Below are positions 2,630 to 39,933 of a stretch of DNA of 64,000 nucleotides, piece by piece. A model generated the notes under the pieces. The model had not been told where the DNA came from, made no database searches, and saw only the letters and a list, made by a program, of their open reading frames with translations. The translations under genes were made by a program, and so were the position numbers. How positions within the stretch are numbered: the first letter of the stretch is position 1; each line of letters opens with the position of its first letter. Source of the stretch: Rhodobacterales bacterium (GTDB taxonomy: Bacteria > Pseudomonadota > Alphaproteobacteria > Rhodobacterales > CAZPXZ01); contig OZ244777.1 in the NCBI GenBank assembly GCA_965219495.1, forward strand, positions 4,150,419 through 4,214,418, in the 5' to 3' direction.

Positions 2630-4024
2630 CTAGTCCGGCCGACTCTCCTTGACCCATGTGTAGGTTTCATCGAGAGTGTTCTCGAACCTTTCGCAAATCT
2701 CGTCGATCTGACCCTCAGTTGTGATCAGCGGGGGTGTTATCGCCATGGAATCATCTGCGAGAGGACGTACAATCAATCCGTGTTTCAGGCCATACTCGGA
2801 GCACCTGTGGCCGACCATTGAAGATGGCGCGAAGTTCGTGTGACGGGACGAAGACTTGTCCTTGACAAGTTCGATGCCGGCCAGCATACCCACTCCCCGC
2901 ACCTCACCGACTAACGGATGGTTCACCAACTCGGCCAGGCGATGCTGCATGTAATCGCCTATGCGCGCAGCATGAGAAATGATGTTTCGCTCCTCATAGA
3001 TCTTGATCGTCTCCAATGCCACTGCTGCCGTTACAGGATGAGCGGACGACGTAAAGCCCGTTCCAAGCACACCAAATTGGTCCCCTCCCGTTTTCAGACC
3101 CTCATAAATCCCATCGGAAATCAGCACGCTGGAAATCGGCAGATAAGCTGAGGAAAGCTGCTTGGCCAAAATCATGACATCAGGCGTGATACCGAAAGTT
3201 TCCGAGCCGAACAAATTGCCTGTCCGGCCAAACCCGCAGATCACTTCGTCTGCAACCATCAAGACATCGTGCTTCCTTAGAACTTCTTGCACTCTCTCGA
3301 AATAGGATTCCGGCGGGACGATCATTCCGCCGGCGGCAATTGCCGGTTCGGCAAAGAAGGCTGCGACGGTCTCTGGCCCTTCGTCTTCAATGAGCTTGTC
3401 AATTTGTAGCGCCAGACGACTTGCAAAGTCCTGTTCACTCTCTCCTTCTCGTCCCCCATGATAATAGTGTGGTGTCTCAACATGCAGGAACTCAGGAAGC
3501 GGAATGCCAAAACCATTGTGAGCAGACGGTATTCCGGTCATACTGGCCGTTACGGTCGTCGTTCCGTGATACCCCTTGATATGAGTGATGATCTTCCGTT
3601 TCTGCGGCATGCCCCGCGCAGTGTTATGGTACCAAATGAGCTTCACCGCAGTATCATTCGCTTCAGAACCCGAACTCGCAAAGTATGCTTTTGAAAGTGG
3701 CTCTGGCGCCATGTTTATTAGCTGTTCCGCAAGGCGAATGGCCGGTCCGTTAGCAAGGTGGTTAAAGCTGTGGTGGTAGGCGAGCTTCTTCATTTGATCG
3801 CACGCCGCCTCAATCAACCGATCTTCTCCCCACCCAAGACTGACGCATGACAAAGCTGCCACGCACTCCAGATATCGATTGCCGGCATTGTCGAAGACGT
3901 AGATTCCCTCACCTCGCTCAATGATCATCGGCCCGACTTCTTCATGGTGCCGCGGATTCGTGAAAGGATGCAAGCTAAAGGTTATGTCTTTGGACTGCAG
4001 AGAGTTAGGAGCACTGCGGTTCAT
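2630..4024 (-). CDS. Class III PLP aminotransferase (omega-amino acid/polyamine transaminase type)
   Basis: 464 aa; SGSEANDTA, DEVICGFGRTG, Schiff-base region LAKQLSSAYLP, GEVRGVGMLAGIEL. Confidence 0.95.
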   Translation of the reverse strand: MNRSAPNSLQSKDITFSLHPFTNPRHHEEVGPMIIERGEGIYVFDNAGNRYLECVAALSCVSLGWGEDRLIEAACDQMKKLAYHHSFNHLANGPAIRLAEQLINMAPEPLSKAYFASSGSEANDTAVKLIWYHNTARGMPQKRKIITHIKGYHGTTTVTASMTGIPSAHNGFGIPLPEFLHVETPHYYHGGREGESEQDFASRLALQIDKLIEDEGPETVAAFFAEPAIAAGGMIVPPESYFERVQEVLRKHDVLMVADEVICGFGRTGNLFGSETFGITPDVMILAKQLSSAYLPISSVLISDGIYEGLKTGGDQFGVLGTGFTSSAHPVTAAVALETIKIYEERNIISHAARIGDYMQHRLAELVNHPLVGEVRGVGMLAGIELVKDKSSSRHTNFAPSSMVGHRCSEYGLKHGLIVRPLADDSMAITPPLITTEGQIDEICERFENTLDETYTWVKESRPD

Positions 4025-31899: not shown

Positions 31900-32835
31900 C
31901 TACTTGGAAAGGAAGGCGCCGAGGGTTTCGGATTTGAGCAGCATTTCGCTCCAGTCTGCGGCGCCTTTGGGCCTGAGGCGGCGGATTCTGGGGTCGCTTT
32001 CGGCGAGATGGCGGGCTGCGCGGTCTCCGGGGATGTCGGCGTCGTAGCCACAGAGGATTTGGCTGGGGGTCCATTGGTTCATCCAGGTGGGGATGCGGCG
32101 TGCGAGTCCGGCGGTGGATGCGACGGTGACGGGCTGTTTGGCGAGCTGCCTTGCAGCGAGGGCGTCAACGGCGCTTTCGGCGATCAGGACGGTTTCGGGG
32201 GGGATCGGTCCGGCAGCGATCCAGAATGCGCCGAGGCTTTTGCGGGAACCTGGCGCCATTGTCTTGCGTCCGCCGGGCCGGGGTTCGGCGATTTCGGCGC
32301 CGTTCGGGCGTCCTTCGGCGTCGGCGCAGACGAACACGGCGCGGCCGTACTGGTCGGCGTGCAGCCGCTTGCGCCTGTGGCACTGTTCGAGGAGCGCGGG
32401 ATCGATGCCGCGTTCAGCGGCGAGGGCGTCGCGGAGACGGGGCCATTGCGCGGGGTCGGGGCCGGGAATCCGGATGCGGGGTTGCGGGGGATTGTCGGGT
32501 GCGACGGTTTCAGCCTGCATTCCGGCGAGCCATTCGAGCGCTTCGGGGAAGCTTCGTCCGGTCGCATGGATGACGAAGTCGAGGGCGCCTCCGCCGCCCT
32601 GTCCTGCGATGTGATCGAAGAATTTGGATCCGTTGATGCTGACGATGGAGCCATTGCGGGTCCATTTCGCGCGGTCGCGCGGGTGGGGTCGGAAGCCGAG
32701 GGATTTTGCGACCGTTTGGAGCGGGACGGTCCTTGCCCGGGCGGCTGCTGTGGGCGGTGTTTCCGGTTTCCGTTTCCCTGCGGTCCCGGCGGACCGGGGG
32801 AAACGGAACCGCTCAGGATGCGATCCGGCAGCCAT
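31900..32835 (-). CDS. Toprim/primase-like protein (DUF3991-toprim type)
   Basis: GGGGALDFV.H; VLIAESAVDAL; LCGYDADIPG; KGAADWSE; start uncertain. Confidence 0.75.
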   Translation of the reverse strand: MAAGSHPERFRFPRSAGTAGKRKPETPPTAAARARTVPLQTVAKSLGFRPHPRDRAKWTRNGSIVSINGSKFFDHIAGQGGGGALDFVIHATGRSFPEALEWLAGMQAETVAPDNPPQPRIRIPGPDPAQWPRLRDALAAERGIDPALLEQCHRRKRLHADQYGRAVFVCADAEGRPNGAEIAEPRPGGRKTMAPGSRKSLGAFWIAAGPIPPETVLIAESAVDALAARQLAKQPVTVASTAGLARRIPTWMNQWTPSQILCGYDADIPGDRAARHLAESDPRIRRLRPKGAADWSEMLLKSETLGAFLSK

Positions 32836-33778
32836 TCGGGGTGCTTTCGACGCGGCCCTCGTCGACCAGTTCCTTGAGCGCCTGGACCACGGCCTCGGCC
32901 CGGATGCCGGCCCGGGAGCGCAGCTCCCTTTGCGGCATCGGCGCCTTCGCCTTTGCGAGGACGGCCTCGATGCGCTGGCGGGGGGTGTCGGCGGGGGGTT
33001 GTTCGGCGTCTGCGTCGTCGACATGGAGCGCGAGTTCCGGGGGACGGGCCCTGAGTTCGAGGGCCAGTTCGGGGCCGCTGGGCAGCCCCCGGTGCTCGGC
33101 GTTGAGCAGGATGCGGCGGCTTCCGCGGCGCTGGAGGTAGAGCAGGGAGTCGGCCCAGGCGTGAAGCTCGGTGGAGCCGCGCAGCGCCTGTCCTCCGCGC
33201 CGGTGGCCGTCCTTGCGGGCGTGGTGGACCAGCAGCACGGCGCATCCGAAGCGGACCTGGAGTTCGCGCAGCGATCCGAGCAGGGGGGCGATCTCGCCGG
33301 CCTGGTTCTCGTCGACCGCGTGCAGCCGGACCAGCGGGTCGAGGGCGAGCAGCCGGGGCCGGACGCGTTCGACGGTTTCGGCCAGCCGGACCCGGTCGGC
33401 GGCGACATCGAGGCGCAGCCGGGGGGTGTCGATGATCTCGATGTCGAGGCTGTCCAGGGCGCGGCCTGCGGCGCGGGCGATGCCGCCGAGCCGTTCGCGG
33501 AGAATGTGCCGGGCGTCCTCGGCGGCGAACAGCAGCGCGGTTCCGGGGGCGGCGACGGCGAACCGCCGCAGGCAGCGGGCGCCGGTGGCGACGGCGACGG
33601 CGATGTCGAGCGCCAGGAAGGACTTGCAGCACTTCGGCTCGCCGCCGATGATGCCCACCGCCTGGTCGCCCCAGAGCTGCTCGACCAGCCACTTCTCCGG
33701 CTCCGGCCTGGCCTCCAGGTCGGCCGGGCGGAAGGTGGGGAAGCCGCGCCGCCTGGCGCCATTGCCGGGCGGACTCAT
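32813..33778 (-). CDS. RecA/RepA-like AAA_25 helicase with C-terminal wHTH
   Basis: WLVEQLW; GGEPKCCKS; LALDPL; LVHHARK; LRGSTELHAWAD; ATG overlaps the ExeA stop. Confidence 0.85.
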   Translation of the reverse strand: MSPPGNGARRRGFPTFRPADLEARPEPEKWLVEQLWGDQAVGIIGGEPKCCKSFLALDIAVAVATGARCLRRFAVAAPGTALLFAAEDARHILRERLGGIARAAGRALDSLDIEIIDTPRLRLDVAADRVRLAETVERVRPRLLALDPLVRLHAVDENQAGEIAPLLGSLRELQVRFGCAVLLVHHARKDGHRRGGQALRGSTELHAWADSLLYLQRRGSRRILLNAEHRGLPSGPELALELRARPPELALHVDDADAEQPPADTPRQRIEAVLAKAKAPMPQRELRSRAGIRAEAVVQALKELVDEGRVESTPNGCRIAS

Positions 33779-34599
33779 CGCCGCGCCCGGGCGGTGTCGG
33801 GATAGGCCTTGAAGTAGAGCGCCATGTCGATCCGGTCCTCTTCGCGTTCGGCGGCGGACCTGAGCAAGGCGTCGCCCATGATGGTGAGGGAACGCAGGTT
33901 GCCGCCGCAGTGGGCGCACAGGGTGTGCTTCAGTTCGGCGTCCATCAGGCCGGGGTTGCCGGCCTGCTCCAGCATGTGGTCGAGGCTGGCCTCGAGGTCG
34001 GCCGGCTCGGCGAAGCCGAGGTTGAGCCGCAGGCGGACGCGGGACAGCAGCGGCAGCAGGTCGGGCCGGCGCATGCGCGCCAGCAGTTGGGTGTCGCCGG
34101 CCAGGATGACGGCGAGGATGCTGCGCGAATCGAACTCGGTGGAGGACAGCAGCCGCAACTCGCCCAGCACTTCCGGGGCTGCCGCCTGGGCCTCGTCGAT
34201 CAGCAGCACGGGGCGCAAACGGGTGCCGTCGAGATGCGCCGCCCAACTCTCGCGGAGGCCCTTGAAGCCGGACCACAGGTTGCCGGCCAGCATGCCGACG
34301 CCGAACAGTTCCGCCATCTCCCGGTAGAAGTTCGAGAGGCTGGCGCTGGCGTGGCTCAGGGAGGCGGTCTTGAGGTCGGCGCGCCGGGACAGCGCCTCGC
34401 CGACGATGCGCAGCGCGGCGCTCTTTCCGGTGCCGGGTTCGCCGCTCACCATCGCGAAGCCGCCATGCGCCAGCAGGTGGTTCTCGACCTGCCAGCGGAA
34501 GCTGGCGATCTGCGGCGTCTCGCGCAGGGCCGAGGTCGGCGCATCCGGCAGGAACGGATTCCATTTGAGCCCGAAACGGGCGTGCAGCCTATGATCCAT
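33775..34599 (-). CDS. ExeA/TnsC-like AAA+ ATPase (transposition helper)
   Basis: 274 aa; FGLKWNPF; GEPGTGKS; LLIDEAQ; ILAGD; GNLRSL. Confidence 0.9.
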   Translation of the reverse strand: MDHRLHARFGLKWNPFLPDAPTSALRETPQIASFRWQVENHLLAHGGFAMVSGEPGTGKSAALRIVGEALSRRADLKTASLSHASASLSNFYREMAELFGVGMLAGNLWSGFKGLRESWAAHLDGTRLRPVLLIDEAQAAAPEVLGELRLLSSTEFDSRSILAVILAGDTQLLARMRRPDLLPLLSRVRLRLNLGFAEPADLEASLDHMLEQAGNPGLMDAELKHTLCAHCGGNLRSLTIMGDALLRSAAEREEDRIDMALYFKAYPDTARARR

Positions 34600-35198
34600 C
34601 GCCGTCCTCCTCTTCGATCTCGTCGCACGGAACGTAGGGCGGCGGCAGGCCGGTGGCCGCGAACTCCTCGAGCATCCGTTTCAGCAGCGGCGCGTCGTCG
34701 CCGCCATCCGCGCGTTCTTCCGGGGCGTCCGCTGCGGGATCGATCCGCCGTCGCCGGCCGTCGGCGTTGGCCGCCAGGTCGACCGGAAGCAGCCGGCACA
34801 TCTCCGCGCCGCGCGGGTCGACGGCGGTGGCCGTCGACAGGTCCCAGCGGGCGAAACGCACCCGCAGCTTGCGCAGGCGCCGGAAGCGGGAGGGAACCTC
34901 GAAGCGGACACCCCGGAGCGACACCGTGCCGTCCGTCCGCCGCTGGGTGCGGTACTCCTGCAGGCGGAACGACGCCCGCAGGGCCTCCGGGCCGGGACAC
35001 GGGCGACCGGCATCGGGGCCCGCGAGCAACCGCTCCAGCGGCGTCGAAGCGATGCTGCGGTGGCGGCGCCGGTTATAGTCGCCCTCGGCCCACACCGAAG
35101 TGATGCGGTTCAGTTCCGACAGCGTCAGCTCCCGGCAGCCGCCGATCATCGGAAGCAACCGGCTTTCAACCAAGCCCCGGAAGGCTTCCACTTTACCG
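34589..35198 (-). pseudogene. Mu/TnsB-like DDE transposase, C-terminal piece
   Basis: NGKVEAF..., YNRRRHRSI..TPL, RTQRRTDGTVSL.GVRFEVP (Mu-transposase C-like). Confidence 0.88.
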
Positions 35199-35199
35199 T

Positions 35200-35502
35200 T
35201 TGAGTGAACAGACAAGTGCACCTGAAGGTCACGGTGCGACGACGGCTTTCACGGTCACTCACCCGTTTCATCCGCTGAACGGCCGCACCTTCGATCTCCT
35301 GGAGATCAAGCTCTGCTGGGGTGAGATGCGCGTCTACTGGCTTGACGAGGCCGGTGGTGTGCGGCGCATCCCGTTGTGCTGGACCAGTCTGGAGACGCCG
35401 GACCCCTTTGTGGCGGTGTCGGCCGGACGCTCCGCGTTCCGTGTCCTGGATCTTCTGGCGCTGAGCGACCTTGTCGCCTCGCTGCGCGGGGACGTGTCAT
35501 GA
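35200..35502 (+). CDS. DUF5372 (Y4bD-like) small protein, lacks an ATG start in the integrated state
   Basis: VTHPFHPLNG..F...WTS..PDPF...AGRS.FRV.DLL.L. Confidence 0.75.
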   Translation: MSEQTSAPEGHGATTAFTVTHPFHPLNGRTFDLLEIKLCWGEMRVYWLDEAGGVRRIPLCWTSLETPDPFVAVSAGRSAFRVLDLLALSDLVASLRGDVS

Positions 35503-35709
35503 CTGTCAAAGAGATTATGCCGCAATATGTAAGAACATTTATGCCGATGTATGGTGACGTGCCCCAGGCGATCATCGGATCGGTTGATGTCGACTGCATC
35601 GCAACTCGCTGTTGTTGGCGTATAATCCCCAATGAACAGTGCGAGAAGCTTGACGACGCCCTCCTGGTGCGGCATATATATAATGACAGTTTCGCGAAAG
35701 GAACCCCCC

Positions 35710-36165
35710 ATGCCGAAGAGCGACGACAAGACATCAAACCTCAAGAAGCATGGCGCCCTCAACCGGCATCCCGAACAGGTGCGCGACCCCCTGTTCCTCG
35801 AAGAGGCCTTCTTCGATCCATGCGACCTCGTTCAGGTCCGCTACGAGATGCTGCGGCGGGTCACGAAGGACGGGCAGCCGGTGAGCAAGAGCGCGCGCAC
35901 CTTCGGTGTCTCCCGGCCCACCTGGTACCAGGCAGCAAAAGCCTTCGAGGCCGGGGGCCTGCCGGCCCTTCTCCCCGAGAGACCGGGACCAAGACGCGCC
36001 CACAAGCTCGACGAGGCCGTGGTCAGGGCGCTCATCAAGGCGCGCTCGGCAACGCCCGCCATCACCACCGCAGAACTCGTCGCCCTGGTACGCGAACGCT
36101 TCGCTCTTTCCGTTCACCGCCGCAGCATCGAACGGGCTCTGTCCCGTGCCAAAAAAAACCTCTGA
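35710..36165 (+). CDS. HTH protein of the LSR element
   Basis: FFDPCDLVQVRYEMLR; FGVSRPTWYQ; GPRRAHKL; VHRRSIERAL. Confidence 0.85.
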   Translation: MPKSDDKTSNLKKHGALNRHPEQVRDPLFLEEAFFDPCDLVQVRYEMLRRVTKDGQPVSKSARTFGVSRPTWYQAAKAFEAGGLPALLPERPGPRRAHKLDEAVVRALIKARSATPAITTAELVALVRERFALSVHRRSIERALSRAKKNL

Positions 36166-36449
36166 AGACACCGCCGCCGTGTGTCGACCCACAACACACG
36201 ACCGGGGAATACGAACATCTGCGCCAATCCAGAGAACACGCCGACAGCATCGCCAGACACCGCGGGCTCGCCATCCTGACCGGCCACGGCATGGCAGCGT
36301 GGCTCGCCATCCTCGGCCAGGCGGCAGCACCCCCGGAACGCCGTCACGATCCCGCAATGCGCCTTTCCCGGGATCTCGAAGCCGGTCTGATCGACATCAT
36401 CGTCGCCATTGCCATGAACCAGACAAGGGAGACCCGCCATGAGCCGTGA
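36150..36449 (+). CDS. Small accessory ORF without a clear start (possible -1 frameshift fusion to the HTH protein)
   Basis: YEHLR...GLAILTGHGMAAWL; opens in the -1 frame at an A8 run. Confidence 0.55.
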   Translation, partial: QKKPLKTPPPCVDPQHTTGEYEHLRQSREHADSIARHRGLAILTGHGMAAWLAILGQAAAPPERRHDPAMRLSRDLEAGLIDIIVAIAMNQTRETRHEP

Positions 36450-38523
36450 GAACCACAAGGTGACGGAGCGTCATCTGGCCCGCAACGCCTATCTCTACAT
36501 CCGCCAGTCGACCCTGCGACAGGTGGTCGAGAACACCGAGAGCACACGGCGCCAGTACGAACTGCGCGATCGTGCCCATGCGCTCGGATGGCCGATCGAG
36601 AAGGTCATGGTCATCGACTCCGATCTCGGTCAGTCGGGTGCGGACCGGGACCGCGCCGGCTTCAAGAACCTGGTCGGCGAAGTCTCCGTGGGTCATGCCG
36701 GCATCGTCCTCGGTCTCGAGGTCTCCCGGTTGGCCCGCAACTCCAGCGACTGGCACCGGCTGCTCGAGTTCTGCGCCCTGACCGACACCTTGATCCTCGA
36801 CGAGGACGGTGTCTATGACCCCTGTGACTTCAACGACCGCCTCATCCTGGGGCTCAAGGGCCAGATGTCGGAAGCCGAGCTTCACATGCTGCGGGCGCGC
36901 CTGCAGGGCGGCATTGCCAACCGGGCGAAGCGTGGCGAACTCAAGGTGCGCCTGCCCGTCGGCCTGGTCTATGATCCGCTCGACCGGGTGGTTCTCGATC
37001 CCGATGCCCAGGTGCGCAACAGTGTTACGCTGCTGTTCGAGACCTTCATGCGCACCGGATCGGCGATGGCCACCGTCAAGGCGTTCCGCGCCACCGGACT
37101 GAAGTTCCCCCGAAGGCCGTGGAGCGGCCCGCACAAGGGCACACTGCACTGGGACGAACTGTTGCATTCGCGGGTCCTGCAGGTTCTCCACAATCCCCGC
37201 TACGCTGGCGCCTTCGTGTTCGGCCGCCAACGAAGACGGCGTCTGCCTGACGGCACGTTCGCCTACAGGCGCGGATCCCACGAAGAGGCCACCGTGCTGC
37301 TGCGCGACTGTCATCCCGGCTACATCACCTGGGAGCGCTTCGAGGCCCACCAGCAACGCCTTGCCGAGAACCGGACATCCGGCGCGGACAGCCGGCGACC
37401 GCCGCGCGAGGGACCGGCTCTCCTCCAGGGCCTCGCGCTGTGCGGCCTGTGCGGCAGCAAGATGGCGGTCAGCTATCATCTGCGCCGCAACTGTCAGGTT
37501 CCGGACTACATCTGCCAGCGTCAGACCCTCGATCACAGCCTGAAGGCGTGCCAGCGTGTGCCGGGTCGGCGCATCGATCAGGCGATCGCAGAGTTGCTTG
37601 TCGACCTCATGACACCGACGACACTGGAAGTGGCGTTGCGCGTGCAACAGGACCTCGAGGCACAACTCGAGCAGATCGATGTCTGGCGCCGCCAGCAGGT
37701 GCAGCGTGCCCGCGAAGAGGTCGATCTCGCACGCCTGCGGTTCATGAACACCCATCCCGACAATCGCATGGTCGTCGATGCCCTGGAAGCTGAATGGGAC
37801 GCGAAGCTGCGCTATCTCGACACGGTGCGCCACGACTGCGACCGGCGCCGGGACGAACAGCGCAGGCAGCTCGAGACCGGCGAACGCGAGCGCATCCTCG
37901 AGCTTGCCTGCGACTTCCCGAAACTGTGGCGCGACCCGGCAACTCCGGACCGTGAACGCAAGCGCATGATCCGGCTCCTGGTCGAGGACATCACCATCAC
38001 CGGCGGTGAAGAGATCGGACTCGACATCCGGCTGCGTGGCGGCGCCACGCGCCGGATCGCTGTCACGCCGGACCCGCCGAGATGGAAGACGATGGTCACC
38101 CCGCCCGGCGTGATCGATCGGATCGATGCATTGCTCGACGCTCACAGCGACGGCGCGATTGCCGATCTCCTCAACCAGCAGGGCTATCGGAGCGGGACTG
38201 GCCAGCTCTTCAACAAGAAACTGATCCAGGCCTTGTGCTGGCGCCGTGGTCTGAAGACCCGTTACAAGCGTCTGCGCGAACGCGGCCTGTTGACGCGCGA
38301 GGAAATGGCGCAACGCCTCGACATCCAACCACTCACGGTGGTGCTATGGCGCCGACAGGGCCTGCTCGTCGGTCATCCATGGAACGACAGGAACCAGTGT
38401 CTCTACGAGATGCCGGACCCCCCACCCGTCAGAAACACGCACAAGCTCGCCCGGATGCAAAGAGCCGCGTCGGATCACGCTCACCAGAGTGCGCAGGATC
38501 CGGCCAGGCAGGAAGAACGATGA
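36439..38523 (+). CDS. Large serine recombinase (resolvase, recombinase and Zn-ribbon domains)
   Basis: 694 aa; AYLYIRQST, DSDLGQSG, EVSRLARN, HNPRYAG, CGLCG...C...C. Confidence 0.95.
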   Translation: MSRENHKVTERHLARNAYLYIRQSTLRQVVENTESTRRQYELRDRAHALGWPIEKVMVIDSDLGQSGADRDRAGFKNLVGEVSVGHAGIVLGLEVSRLARNSSDWHRLLEFCALTDTLILDEDGVYDPCDFNDRLILGLKGQMSEAELHMLRARLQGGIANRAKRGELKVRLPVGLVYDPLDRVVLDPDAQVRNSVTLLFETFMRTGSAMATVKAFRATGLKFPRRPWSGPHKGTLHWDELLHSRVLQVLHNPRYAGAFVFGRQRRRRLPDGTFAYRRGSHEEATVLLRDCHPGYITWERFEAHQQRLAENRTSGADSRRPPREGPALLQGLALCGLCGSKMAVSYHLRRNCQVPDYICQRQTLDHSLKACQRVPGRRIDQAIAELLVDLMTPTTLEVALRVQQDLEAQLEQIDVWRRQQVQRAREEVDLARLRFMNTHPDNRMVVDALEAEWDAKLRYLDTVRHDCDRRRDEQRRQLETGERERILELACDFPKLWRDPATPDRERKRMIRLLVEDITITGGEEIGLDIRLRGGATRRIAVTPDPPRWKTMVTPPGVIDRIDALLDAHSDGAIADLLNQQGYRSGTGQLFNKKLIQALCWRRGLKTRYKRLRERGLLTREEMAQRLDIQPLTVVLWRRQGLLVGHPWNDRNQCLYEMPDPPPVRNTHKLARMQRAASDHAHQSAQDPARQEER

Positions 38524-38597
38524 CGCCTCGAGCCTGCGCATCAACGACAACGTTATCGTGTGCTGCCGAAGCCGGGCACGCGGACAAGGAGAACACG

Positions 38598-38885
38598 ATG
38601 GCCCTCAGCCCCGCAGAGAAGCAGCGCCGCTACCGTGAGCGTCTCAAGGCCGGCGCCAGACCGGTCCACTATCGATGCCCCCGGGACAGGCGCTCAAGGC
38701 CGCAACGCTGGAAGGATGCCGTGGAGATCCTGATCGCCCTGCAGGAGCACTACAGGACATGGCTCGAAGCCCTGCCGGAGAGCCTCCACGACACGACGGT
38801 CCACGCGATGCTGGAGACGATCAGCGATCTCGACCTCGAGGAACTCCGGGACGTCGAACTGCCCCGCGGATATGGACGCGACTGA
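38598..38885 (+). CDS. Small hypothetical protein
   Basis: 95 aa; AGGAG RBS; MALSPAEKQRRYRER...LPRGYGRD. Confidence 0.7.
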   Translation: MALSPAEKQRRYRERLKAGARPVHYRCPRDRRSRPQRWKDAVEILIALQEHYRTWLEALPESLHDTTVHAMLETISDLDLEELRDVELPRGYGRD

Positions 38886-39072
38886 TGACACCCGATACGG
38901 TCACGTTACCATGTACGGTTGAAATCCCGGTCGCCACCAACGCAGTTCCAACCGACGGCGGGGCGGACGCGAACCTTGAGTACAACGGCACGGGAACGGC
39001 TCTGATCAATCAAACATGTTCCCATCGAACCCATGGAGTGCAGTATGAATCACAGTCCTTCTGCTGCGGACT

Positions 39073-39933
39073 CTAGGGACGCGTCGTCACCCGCAGAATG
39101 CCGAGTTCCTCAAGCCCGTTCACCACCTCGCCGGCCGCCATCGCCGAGCCGTTGTCGACCATCAGGGACCTGGGACAAGTGCGCTTGAGAAGCGCCTGCA
39201 CAAGGCCGTGAACAAAGCTCCGGGCGCTCTCCGAGAAGTACCATTGCCCATGGCAGAGAAGCCGCGAACGGTCGTCGATGAACGTCAGCAGCACCGGCTT
39301 GATCCATTCGCCGCTGCGCCGCAGCACCCGCAGCGAGCCCGTGTGGAAATCCGCATGCCACAGGCCATGCACCCGCTCGACCTCGTAGCCGCGGGTCTCC
39401 AGCTGCGAGCGCCGCCGCAGCGCCGCCGCCTCGCCGGCAAGCATGCGCCGTCCGGGCCGCGTCCGTCGCAACCCCTCCGCCCGCATGAAGCGCAGCACCG
39501 ACGGATAGGACGGAAGCGGGCTGAACGCCGGGTCGGCGCCGGCGACCACGACCAGGTTGTCGTAATGCAGCTGCACCGTCCAGCCGGGATGCGCGGCGTA
39601 CTGGCGGCGCAGCGTCTCCGCGATCCGCGGGGTGAACGAGCGCTGGAAGCCGGCGTCGGAGCGCCGGCGCTTGCAAAGCGCCCCCACCGGATCGCTGTCC
39701 TCCGCCCGCGCCAGGTAGTACCACCGCTCGATGGTCGCCGCCGCGAACCGCACCGGCTCCGCCGTCGCGGGGTGGCGCCAGTCCCGGGACGCCAGGCGCT
39801 CGAACTCGCGCCCCAGCCCGCCGGCCGCCGGCGGCGACGCCAGAAGCGGCCCCACGATCGAGAAGCGCAGCCGCGCCCAGCCGTCCCGTCCACCGTTGCC
39901 TCCGTCCATTCCGTCCCCCTTCCTTGCAAGCAA
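39073..39933 (-). pseudogene. Mu/TnsB-like DDE transposase, N-terminal piece
   Basis: LRFSIVGPLL; HTH; WHADF; FIDDRSR; VDNGSA; ends P*SPQQ with TAG in place of Tyr. Confidence 0.88.

Follow-up and report, generated by a model that had tools for sequence, protein, structure and literature searches.

A DUF5372 gene split by the attachment site of a large serine recombinase element is probably completed only in the excised state

In the genome of a Rhodobacterales bacterium, a 3.86-kb element with a large serine recombinase (LSR) occupies positions 35201-39060 of the window, by which we mean the whole 64,000-nt stretch analyzed here (GenBank assembly GCA_965219495.1, contig OZ244777.1, forward strand, positions 4,150,419 to 4,214,418). 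As read from its sequence and listed open reading frames (ORFs), the element has a TT core at both ends, and its plus strand carries a compact gene set encoding a DUF5372 protein, a helix-turn-helix (HTH) protein, the LSR and a 95-aa ORF. Read from the sequence, the attP crossover (TT) separates codon 5 of the DUF5372 gene from codon 6. In the integrated element the body of this gene stands at the left end, and its Shine-Dalgarno (SD) sequence, start codon and first codons stand at the right end. The split layout is common to elements from more than 12 bacterial phyla. The best explanation for the whole, which we consider probable, is a gene that is genuinely split, would be expressed essentially from the excised circle, and whose product would serve as a cofactor of the recombinase. 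The features that define the element and its split gene are the following.

34589-35198, minus strand: C-terminal part of the target gene, a DDE (rve) transposase (Pfam rve, rve_3), from ...NGKVEAFRG onwards; left arm of attB.
35199-35200, plus strand: crossover core TT of attL, identical to the dinucleotide at 39059-39060.
35200-35502, plus strand: body of DUF5372 (PF17342), from codon 6 up to the stop; once integrated, it is left with a junction TTG alone and no SD.
35201-35238, plus strand: P' half-site of attP, TT-N16-TGCA (TGCA at 35217-35220), conserved out to about 38 nt across 76 left ends and lying inside the 5' coding part of DUF5372.
39021-39058, plus strand: P half-site of attP, with TGCA at 39039-39042, N16 and the TT core, from right-end comparison and a position matrix.
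39035-39038, plus strand: SD sequence GGAG, 6 nt 5' of the ATG (sequence, 46 right ends, position matrix).
39045-39060, plus strand: start and codons 1-5 of DUF5372 (ATG AAT CAC AGT CCT) with the first base of codon 6; the terminal TT is the attR core.
39061-39933, minus strand: N-terminal part of the same transposase gene, which rejoins in frame with 34589-35198; right arm of attB.

The element boundaries and the TT core are exact, because excision in silico rejoins the transposase in frame. The left junction reads ...actttaccg TT tgagtgaacag, and removal of 35201-39060 with one TT kept yields a minus-strand rve ORF that runs through ...GILRVTTRP, a stop codon and SPQQ into NGKVEAFRG... across the junction. 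The TT of the empty site is the AA of the Asn codon preceding G-K-V-E in the transposase. The same 2-bp core at each end, the lack of a target duplication and the restoration of the target on removal were found both in the window and in relatives. The stop in the rejoined ORF is an in-frame TAG at 39073-39075 (minus strand), 13 nt from the junction, at a position that is a Tyr codon in relatives; the target gene therefore has a second defect beyond the insertion.

A first-pass annotation of this stretch had proposed that the DUF5372 ORF has only a junction TTG as a start at the left end, that the right end reads GGAG-tgcagt-ATG AAT CAC AGT CCT T, and that joining the two ends through the TT would place a ribosome-binding site and a start in frame with DUF5372. 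All three statements are borne out by the sequence. TTG 35200-35202 is the sole in-frame start before the domain, the next in-frame ATG lying inside the domain, which itself matches PF17342 with E 2e-24 (85.8 bits against a cut-off of 25) over residues 19-95 of the TTG ORF. The right end is the close of 175 bp of non-coding DNA after the 95-aa ORF, and between 39035 and 39060 it reads GGAG (39035-39038), tgcagt, ATG (39045-39047), AAT CAC AGT CC and the TT core (39059-39060). When the ends are joined via one TT, the product is MNHSPLSEQTSAPEG..., a 105-aa frame continuous with DUF5372 and preceded by GGAG 6 nt before its ATG. The database protein of this DUF5372 copy (P0001) begins with M where the DNA has ACG.

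The arrangement was followed in relatives by a scan of one genome per species, which returned 480 DUF5372 relatives, the best 80 loci of which were studied. These span Alpha-, Beta-, Gamma- and Deltaproteobacteria, Actinomycetota, Chloroflexota, Acidobacteriota, Gemmatimonadota and Planctomycetota, as well as Bacteroidota, Nitrospirota, Spirochaetota, Verrucomicrobiota and Armatimonadota. Four loci with a truncated or disrupted recombinase (L004, L003, L035, L036) and one with a disrupted right end (L010) were excluded from paired-end counts. The left ends (76) align without gaps, with the core 59 nt before the His codon of the motif HPFHP in nearly all; where the length differs, it does so by a full codon (L028 group, -3 nt; Sinorhizobium meliloti, +3 nt). 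Across the 60 nt from core to HPFHP, no locus has an in-frame stop (0/76), whereas the other two frames contain stops in 48/76 and 60/76 loci and are thus open in only 28/76 and 16/76. The frame across attP among homologues, offered by the first-pass annotation as the means of checking its proposal, is accordingly not random, the core-to-domain frame being open in 76/76. None of the 76 loci has an in-frame ATG between core and HPFHP. The stretch from core to domain is stop-free in frame and must therefore be translated from a start upstream of the core; as far as sequence comparison goes, this open frame is beyond what DNA binding explains. A plus-strand remnant in S. meliloti (L084) considered as an out-of-frame case was rejected, since it is a truncated copy to which a right end not its own had been assigned; in the complete S. 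meliloti copy (L085) the junction is in frame.

Right ends were located by the symmetric framework T(G/A)CA-N16-TT directly past the LSR gene, and were checked in two ways. Near-identical copies in different flanks (L001/L002 and L014/L020/L021) fix both ends independently, and 37 empty-site reconstructions read, in most cases, through into recognizable DDE transposase motifs. Both ends are thus validated independently of the start codon, since the empty sites rejoin transposase motifs. The consensus of the right end is (A/G)GAGGTGCA(G)T(A/G)TG AAG CGT AGC CC TT. Among 46 distinct right ends, the start position is occupied by ATG in 34 and by GTG in 11, and the remaining one (L039) has CAC followed by an in-frame TTG one codon on. 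A GAGG/GGAG-type SD motif at a spacer of 6 is present in 43 of the 46. The four codons past the start are stop-free in all 46, as against 14 and 25 in the other frames, and every reconstructed junction consists of a start, four codons, the core, about 20 codons and HPFHP. Permutation of the gene across attP, suggested earlier for the window copy, is consequently a family trait, with start, spacing and frame kept in 46/46 distinct right ends. In L063 and L065 the TGCA half-site motif is lost, and AAGGAG and ATG are retained. The right end of L010 (about 3350-3480) is broken after GTG AAG CAT by a short insertion between TTAAGGTGGA(C/A)CC repeats; it is the sole right end with a stop right past the start, and L010 is probably a decayed copy.

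The position of the rebuilt start relative to the recombinase gene suggests how it would be used. The LSR stop and the DUF5372 start overlap or adjoin in 34 of 44 elements: the distance is -11 nt in 14/44, where the LSR ends ...EVQ[Y/C]EA, -4 nt in 9/44 (...GGAV with an ATGA overlap) and +7/+8 nt in 11/44, with the TGA within aTGAGG. It is 20-138 nt in a further 9/44 and 521 nt in the window. The -11 nt class also bears out the statement in the first-pass annotation that related LSRs end in a VQYE tail, which is read from the same bases as the start of DUF5372. In the circle, DUF5372 is the last gene of an operon in the order HTH-X-LSR-DUF5372 (X being a segment of about 90 aa described below), and would mostly be coupled to the LSR. 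The earlier idea that joining the ends builds the start of the first gene of the circle therefore holds for the start and fails for the gene order. Given the overlap of LSR stop and DUF5372 start, the gene is in relatives probably transcribed from the operon promoter; by this layout, what the joint assembles is a translation start, not a promoter.

Assembled junctions also occur in natural DNA. Metagenome contigs were scanned for attP by exact matching of a pattern that recovers 24 of 43 reconstructed junctions, and two contigs with an intact junction were found. In L081, the LSR C-terminus leads through GAGGTGCAGTATGA... into a full DUF5372, with an ATGA stop/start overlap. In L082, a complete 701-aa LSR ending ...DEVQYEA overlaps the ATG of a full DUF5372 (MKPDPWLKLSTT...ITHPFHP). 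These contigs derive from circles or head-to-tail dimers. A scan of viral contigs for the same intact attP pattern returned 0 matches.

Integrated copies offer few ways to start translation of DUF5372. Reading upstream from the core, one meets a stop before any in-frame ATG, GTG or TTG in 43 of 68 loci, and an upstream in-frame start with an SD-like motif occurs in 4/68. Between core and domain, 41 of 76 loci have no in-frame start; the V/I codon two before the His of HPFHP is GTG in 27/76 and a non-start codon in 49/76. The layout suggests that DUF5372 is made essentially by excised copies alone, in step with the LSR. Database annotation reflects the split. DUF5372 homologues in the protein database mostly begin at (M/V)THPFHP; a few carry extra N-terminal sequence of unrelated kinds, with divergence setting in at the presumed junction. 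In RefSeq, DUF5372 proteins are annotated in truncated form, and on plasmid pRmeGR4b of S. meliloti GR4 (L085, NC_019847.2, 180606-180869) the gene is given a non-canonical ATA start.

The start signals are embedded in the attachment site, and the two kinds of conservation have to be separated. By sequence comparison, attP consists of two imperfectly inverted half-sites around the core. The P' arm in relatives reads TT-N16-T(G/A)CA, and according to the position matrix GTGCA.T recurs in each arm 15-21 nt from the core, as do A26, C33, A35 and C38. The P arm is conserved as DNA rather than as LSR protein, since the LSRs of different elements read it in all three frames. The signals for translation are distinguishable from this shared pattern: the three SD positions hold 1.5-1.7 bits in the P arm vs 0.4-0.6 bits at the mirror positions in P', and where P carries [A/G]TG as its start, the reverse-complemented P' arm has [T/C]GA. 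Across right ends, this start position never begins with C or T. A mirror image of the TG of ATG in the P' arm was considered and rejected, the position matrix requiring a 1-nt shift. Judged by half-site conservation to 38 nt, attP is about 80 bp long, longer than the usual ~50 bp for LSRs. This length hints at an extra DNA-binding module, possibly a MerR-like HTH in the LSR C-terminus or the HTH protein.

From these observations the following model can be drawn. Once excised, as a circle or a head-to-tail dimer, the element would have the HTH gene, X (reached by -1 frameshift or coupling), the LSR gene, attP and DUF5372 in one unit, and translational coupling to the recombinase would yield about one DUF5372 per LSR. 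By integrating at attB, the element would part DUF5372 from promoter, SD and start, leaving little or no DUF5372, and the protein would thus signal that the element is excised. It would bias the LSR towards attP x attB integration and/or block immediate re-excision, and would be lost once integration destroys its gene, giving hard-wired direction control to a one-enzyme transposon. The cofactor role is suggested by the coupled 1:1 synthesis, which points to a binding partner of the LSR. Absence from integrated copies argues against a trigger of excision, and a bias towards integration is favored because a non-replicating circle must integrate quickly. We put forward this specific function, an LSR cofactor that biases integration or blocks re-excision, as a tentative proposal.

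The AlphaFold model of DUF5372 (pLDDT 79.5) is a five-stranded SH3-like barrel with two helices, and disorder is predicted for the tail that the junction encodes (pLDDT ~46 for residues 1-10). A profile search of the PDB returned nothing at E <= 0.1, though the PDB holds the recombination directionality factor (RDF) YotN/SprB of SPbeta (9dxd). DUF5372 matched no NCBIfam or PHROG family, and homology to a known RDF was not found.

Several points weigh against our interpretation. In the window itself, the 521-nt gap and the extra ORF between LSR stop and DUF5372 start are atypical, and coupling cannot work there as it would in relatives. The GTG at the V of VTHPFHP in 27/76 loci and the junction TTG of the window copy make some translation from integrated copies possible. 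As the tail is predicted to be disordered, a truncated DUF5372 might still fold, and a fold search with the model was uninformative, yielding just weak SH3/KOW-like barrels of the eS4/PsaE type (E ~0.01). Just two contigs hold an intact attP, and they could be tandem dimers instead of circles. Conservation of SD and start is due in part to LSR binding, both being embedded in the half-site, and the attP geometry is fixed, which means that the constant frame is inherited and not independently re-evolved. Finally, the 80 loci were chosen by a query that included the N-terminus, a mild ascertainment bias. This was checked on 12 loci whose search hit did not reach the N-terminus, and there in-frame stops occur in 0/12 vs 10/12 in each of the other frames.

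The split could also be a historical by-product of a drift of attP into the 5' region of the operon's final gene. DUF5372 would then have nothing to do with direction and might act instead as an autorepressor, bend DNA, capture targets or regulate the host insertion sequence (IS). The disordered tail agrees with this, the conserved S-T/N-A-P of the tail can be explained by half-site DNA, with third codon positions conserved too, and the HTH and X proteins could supply direction control. Such an accident is nevertheless unlikely in view of an arrangement that holds without exception over more than 12 phyla and of start codons replaced only by other starts (GTG for ATG, or a compensating TTG). 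An internal SD and ATG has arisen in no lineage, though few substitutions are needed, which argues that the circle-restricted expression is itself selected.

A second alternative accepts the split as real and, in line with a possibility raised in the first-pass annotation, takes DUF5372 for a classical RDF, one that stimulates attL x attR recombination, blocks attP x attB, and is made after excision to guard against immediate re-integration, for instance until the carrier replicon has been transferred. Production at about 1:1 with the LSR is expected of a recombinase-binding protein, as RDFs are, and LSRs alone are normally unidirectional integrases (PMC10083194), so that the element needs an accessory factor. 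We find this quite improbable, since a factor that the integrated copy cannot make cannot start excision. The element also has no replication gene, and blocking the integration of a non-replicating circle would be self-defeating; similarity to solved proteins in sequence or fold, including the SPbeta RDF YotN/SprB, is lacking as well.

The weakest alternative, that GGAG and ATG at the right end are recombinase-binding sequence alone, that DUF5372 is translated from integrated copies by an internal or flanking start and that the in-frame junction is a coincidence, can point to GTGCA.T, mirrored in both half-sites and flanked by ATG and SD, and to the GTG two codons before HPFHP in 27/76 loci, at which gene callers do predict short proteins, but it is very hard to maintain against an open frame that translation from upstream of the core alone explains (stops in 0/76 vs 48/76 and 60/76), a V/I codon that is not a start in 49/76 loci, 43/68 flanks without a start, SD positions far more conserved in P than in P', the retention of SD and ATG in L063 and L065 after loss of TGCA, and a first start base that is A or G and nothing else.

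The remaining features of the element are as follows.

35503-35709, plus strand: AT-richer intergenic region, presumed promoter region of the HTH-X-LSR operon (TTGACG-N18/19-TATATA, by eye).
35710-36165, plus strand: HTH protein, 151 aa, akin to the N-terminal DNA-binding domain of IS481/IS630 transposases.
36151-36158, plus strand: A8 run with the slippery heptamer A_AAA_AAC at 36153-36159, a candidate -1 frameshift site from the sequence.
36159-36449, plus strand: X segment in the -1 frame, with the motifs YE.LR ... G(M/V)AAW and a stop overlapping the LSR start (45 loci).
36439-38523, plus strand: LSR, 694 aa (Pfam Resolvase, Recombinase and Zn_ribbon_recom, with a long C-terminal extension).
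38598-38885, plus strand: extra 95-aa ORF (MALSPAEKQRRYRERL...PRGYGRD), outside the family core and without a family match.
38885-38912, plus strand: promoter-like site ATGACA-16-TACCAT directed towards the right end; weak, with 1 found vs 0.4 expected.

The LSR matches PF00239 (1.4e-19), PF07508 (9.7e-13) and PF13408 (2.4e-06), its translation contains the Y-x-R-x-S motif (YIRQST) and SRLAR, and its closest solved relative in the PDB is YokA/SprA of SPbeta (E ~1e-8). In the Pfam scan it matched Resolvase, Recombinase and Zn_ribbon_recom alone and gave no match to DUF4368. The N-terminal ~105 residues of the HTH protein match transposase models for IS481 (E 2e-14) and IS630 (E 2e-13), and the protein thus resembles the DNA-binding domain of the same kind of gene that the element targets. 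The gap of about 150-200 nt between DUF5372 and the HTH gene is kept in relatives and probably holds the operon promoter, to judge from its position; the TTGACG-N18/19-TATATA motif there was not called by the promoter scan. A terminator scan of the window gave matches at chance level, and neither the promoter nor the terminator scan is used as evidence here.

The HTH ORF stops just past the A8 run, while the -1 frame runs on uninterrupted to 36449 and overlaps the LSR ATG. An A7-A9 run occurs at the matching place in most relatives, with an SD and ATG there where the run is absent. A slippery X_XXY_YYZ heptamer thus stands at the frame change and is conserved in relatives, as in -1 frameshifting of the IS3 type, and is a candidate site by sequence. 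The X segment of about 90 aa has invariant Y, E, R, G and W over the 45 loci (for example L001 7484-7756, L014 7491-7763 and L040 7529-7807). RefSeq annotates X in S. meliloti as a separate 'hypothetical protein', a Pfam scan taking in 36 X sequences and a comparison with NCBIfam found no family for it, and a homologue search with the X segment of the window gave no match. At the place of the 95-aa ORF of the window, relatives have 0-138 nt.

Over the 37 loci with reconstructed empty sites, and in the window at 35185-35200 and 39061-39075, the family inserts at a TT inside the N or K codon before G-K-(V/I/L)-E(R), a motif that holds the catalytic glutamate in DDE transposases, and the element is in every case antisense to the target transposase gene. 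The targets include transposases of the IS481, IS21, IS3 and ISL3 types among others; the sites of L041, L053 and L040 are not recognizable as transposases. Rare non-TT cores are AT in L042 and CT in L059, each matched at both ends, and L041, which is 94% identical to L059, has a TT core. By its insertion sites, the family looks like a parasite of other mobile elements, akin to a hyperparasite. The family is abundant: besides the 480 genomic relatives, 96 plasmids carry the element, 60 of them from Sinorhizobium, with 147 places on plasmids in all. S. meliloti carries intact copies, the one in GR4 lying at 180.56-183.88 kb of pRmeGR4b, and protein accessions make a copy on pSymA of strain 1021 probable. 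In the window, the minus strand downstream of the interrupted transposase (31900-34599) encodes an AAA_22 ATPase (33775-34599) of the TniB/MuB kind, and the same stretch has overlapping long ORFs matching AAA_25 and Toprim/DUF3991. The host element of the target transposase is a larger transposon- or plasmid-like module.

Expression that depends on joined ends is familiar from IS circles, where Pjunc of IS911 and other IS3-type elements and the circle promoters of IS110/IS1111 elements act in this way. Promoters of the circular form have also been described at the junction for tnpX of Tn4451/Tn4453 (Lyras & Rood 2000, as cited in PMC13023037) and for ICEclc (Pcirc) and ICEKp1 (P3'end) (PMC13023037). 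As in these junction-promoter systems, expression of a recombination gene would here depend on whether the element is integrated or excised, the ends being joined in the circle alone, and as in Tn4451 the element is LSR-driven. In those systems, however, a promoter is assembled or repositioned and the coding sequence is intact in both states, whereas in DUF5372 the crossover lies inside the ORF, and the SD, the start and five codons are parted from the gene body; the regulated gene is moreover an accessory one and not the recombinase.

Crossovers within coding sequence have precedents of other kinds. In Myxococcus phage Mx8 (intP/intX), attP lies within the coding sequence of a tyrosine integrase, and integration swaps the 3' end of int and with it the C-terminus. 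The likeness is a crossover within an element gene by which integration alters the protein that can be made; the difference is that here a serine recombinase element has a separate gene that loses its translation start, an on/off change rather than a change of isoform. Serine invertases (Gin of Mu, Cin of P1) and shufflons also place crossovers in coding regions, where inversion swaps C-terminal segments of tail-fibre or pilin proteins. A recombinase site inside an ORF, with recombination deciding which complete ORF exists, is common to these switches and to the DUF5372 gene; unlike them, excision and integration here join or part the 5' end, and the outcome would feed back on the element's own mobility. 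In the literature searched, no description was found of an accessory gene whose body attP separates from its SD, start and first codons.

Among LSR elements, one comparison is with multi-targeting transposons, which are IS- or transposon-like, have many insertion sites and a TT core and carry mobility genes only, as this family does (PMC10083194). A DUF4368 domain is present in 63% of the multi-targeting TnpX/TndX-type LSR clade (PMC10083194). The present element differs from that clade in lacking DUF4368, in carrying DUF5372, the HTH protein and X, and in targeting an (N/K)-G-K-V-E coding motif in antisense instead of AT-rich pseudo-sites. Known RDFs of LSRs include gp3 of phiC31, gp47 of Bxb1, SprB/YotN of SPbeta and CD1234 of the C. 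difficile skin element (PMC5025042). DUF5372 is like these a small accessory protein encoded beside the LSR and probably made in step with it; unlike them, it has no sequence or structural similarity to them, and its expression logic is opposite to the needs of an excision factor. In the literature searched, no mention of DUF5372 was found, and a search for serine recombinases inserted in transposase genes found nothing.

State-dependent expression of mobile elements has so far been documented at the promoter level (Tn4451, ICEclc, ICEKp1 and IS circles). In the family described here, recombination itself builds or destroys a complete gene, a compact, sequence-encoded memory of the excised versus the integrated state. 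The split accounts for mis-called DUF5372 starts, both truncated proteins and non-canonical start codons. By disrupting the transposases of other mobile elements, the family is relevant to the dynamics of ISs, among them those on rhizobial symbiosis plasmids. In its widest form, which we regard as possible but doubtful, DUF5372 would be a directionality factor of a new kind, available or not according to the recombination state, by which one LSR would cycle between excision and reintegration unaided, in a family hyperparasitic on the catalytic-Glu codons of DDE transposases across many IS families. The intact copies in S. meliloti make the model directly testable there. If DUF5372 does control direction, this would account for transposase behavior in an LSR, an enzyme that normally integrates one way only, and the small protein and its att architecture would offer self-limiting or reversible LSR integration for genome engineering.

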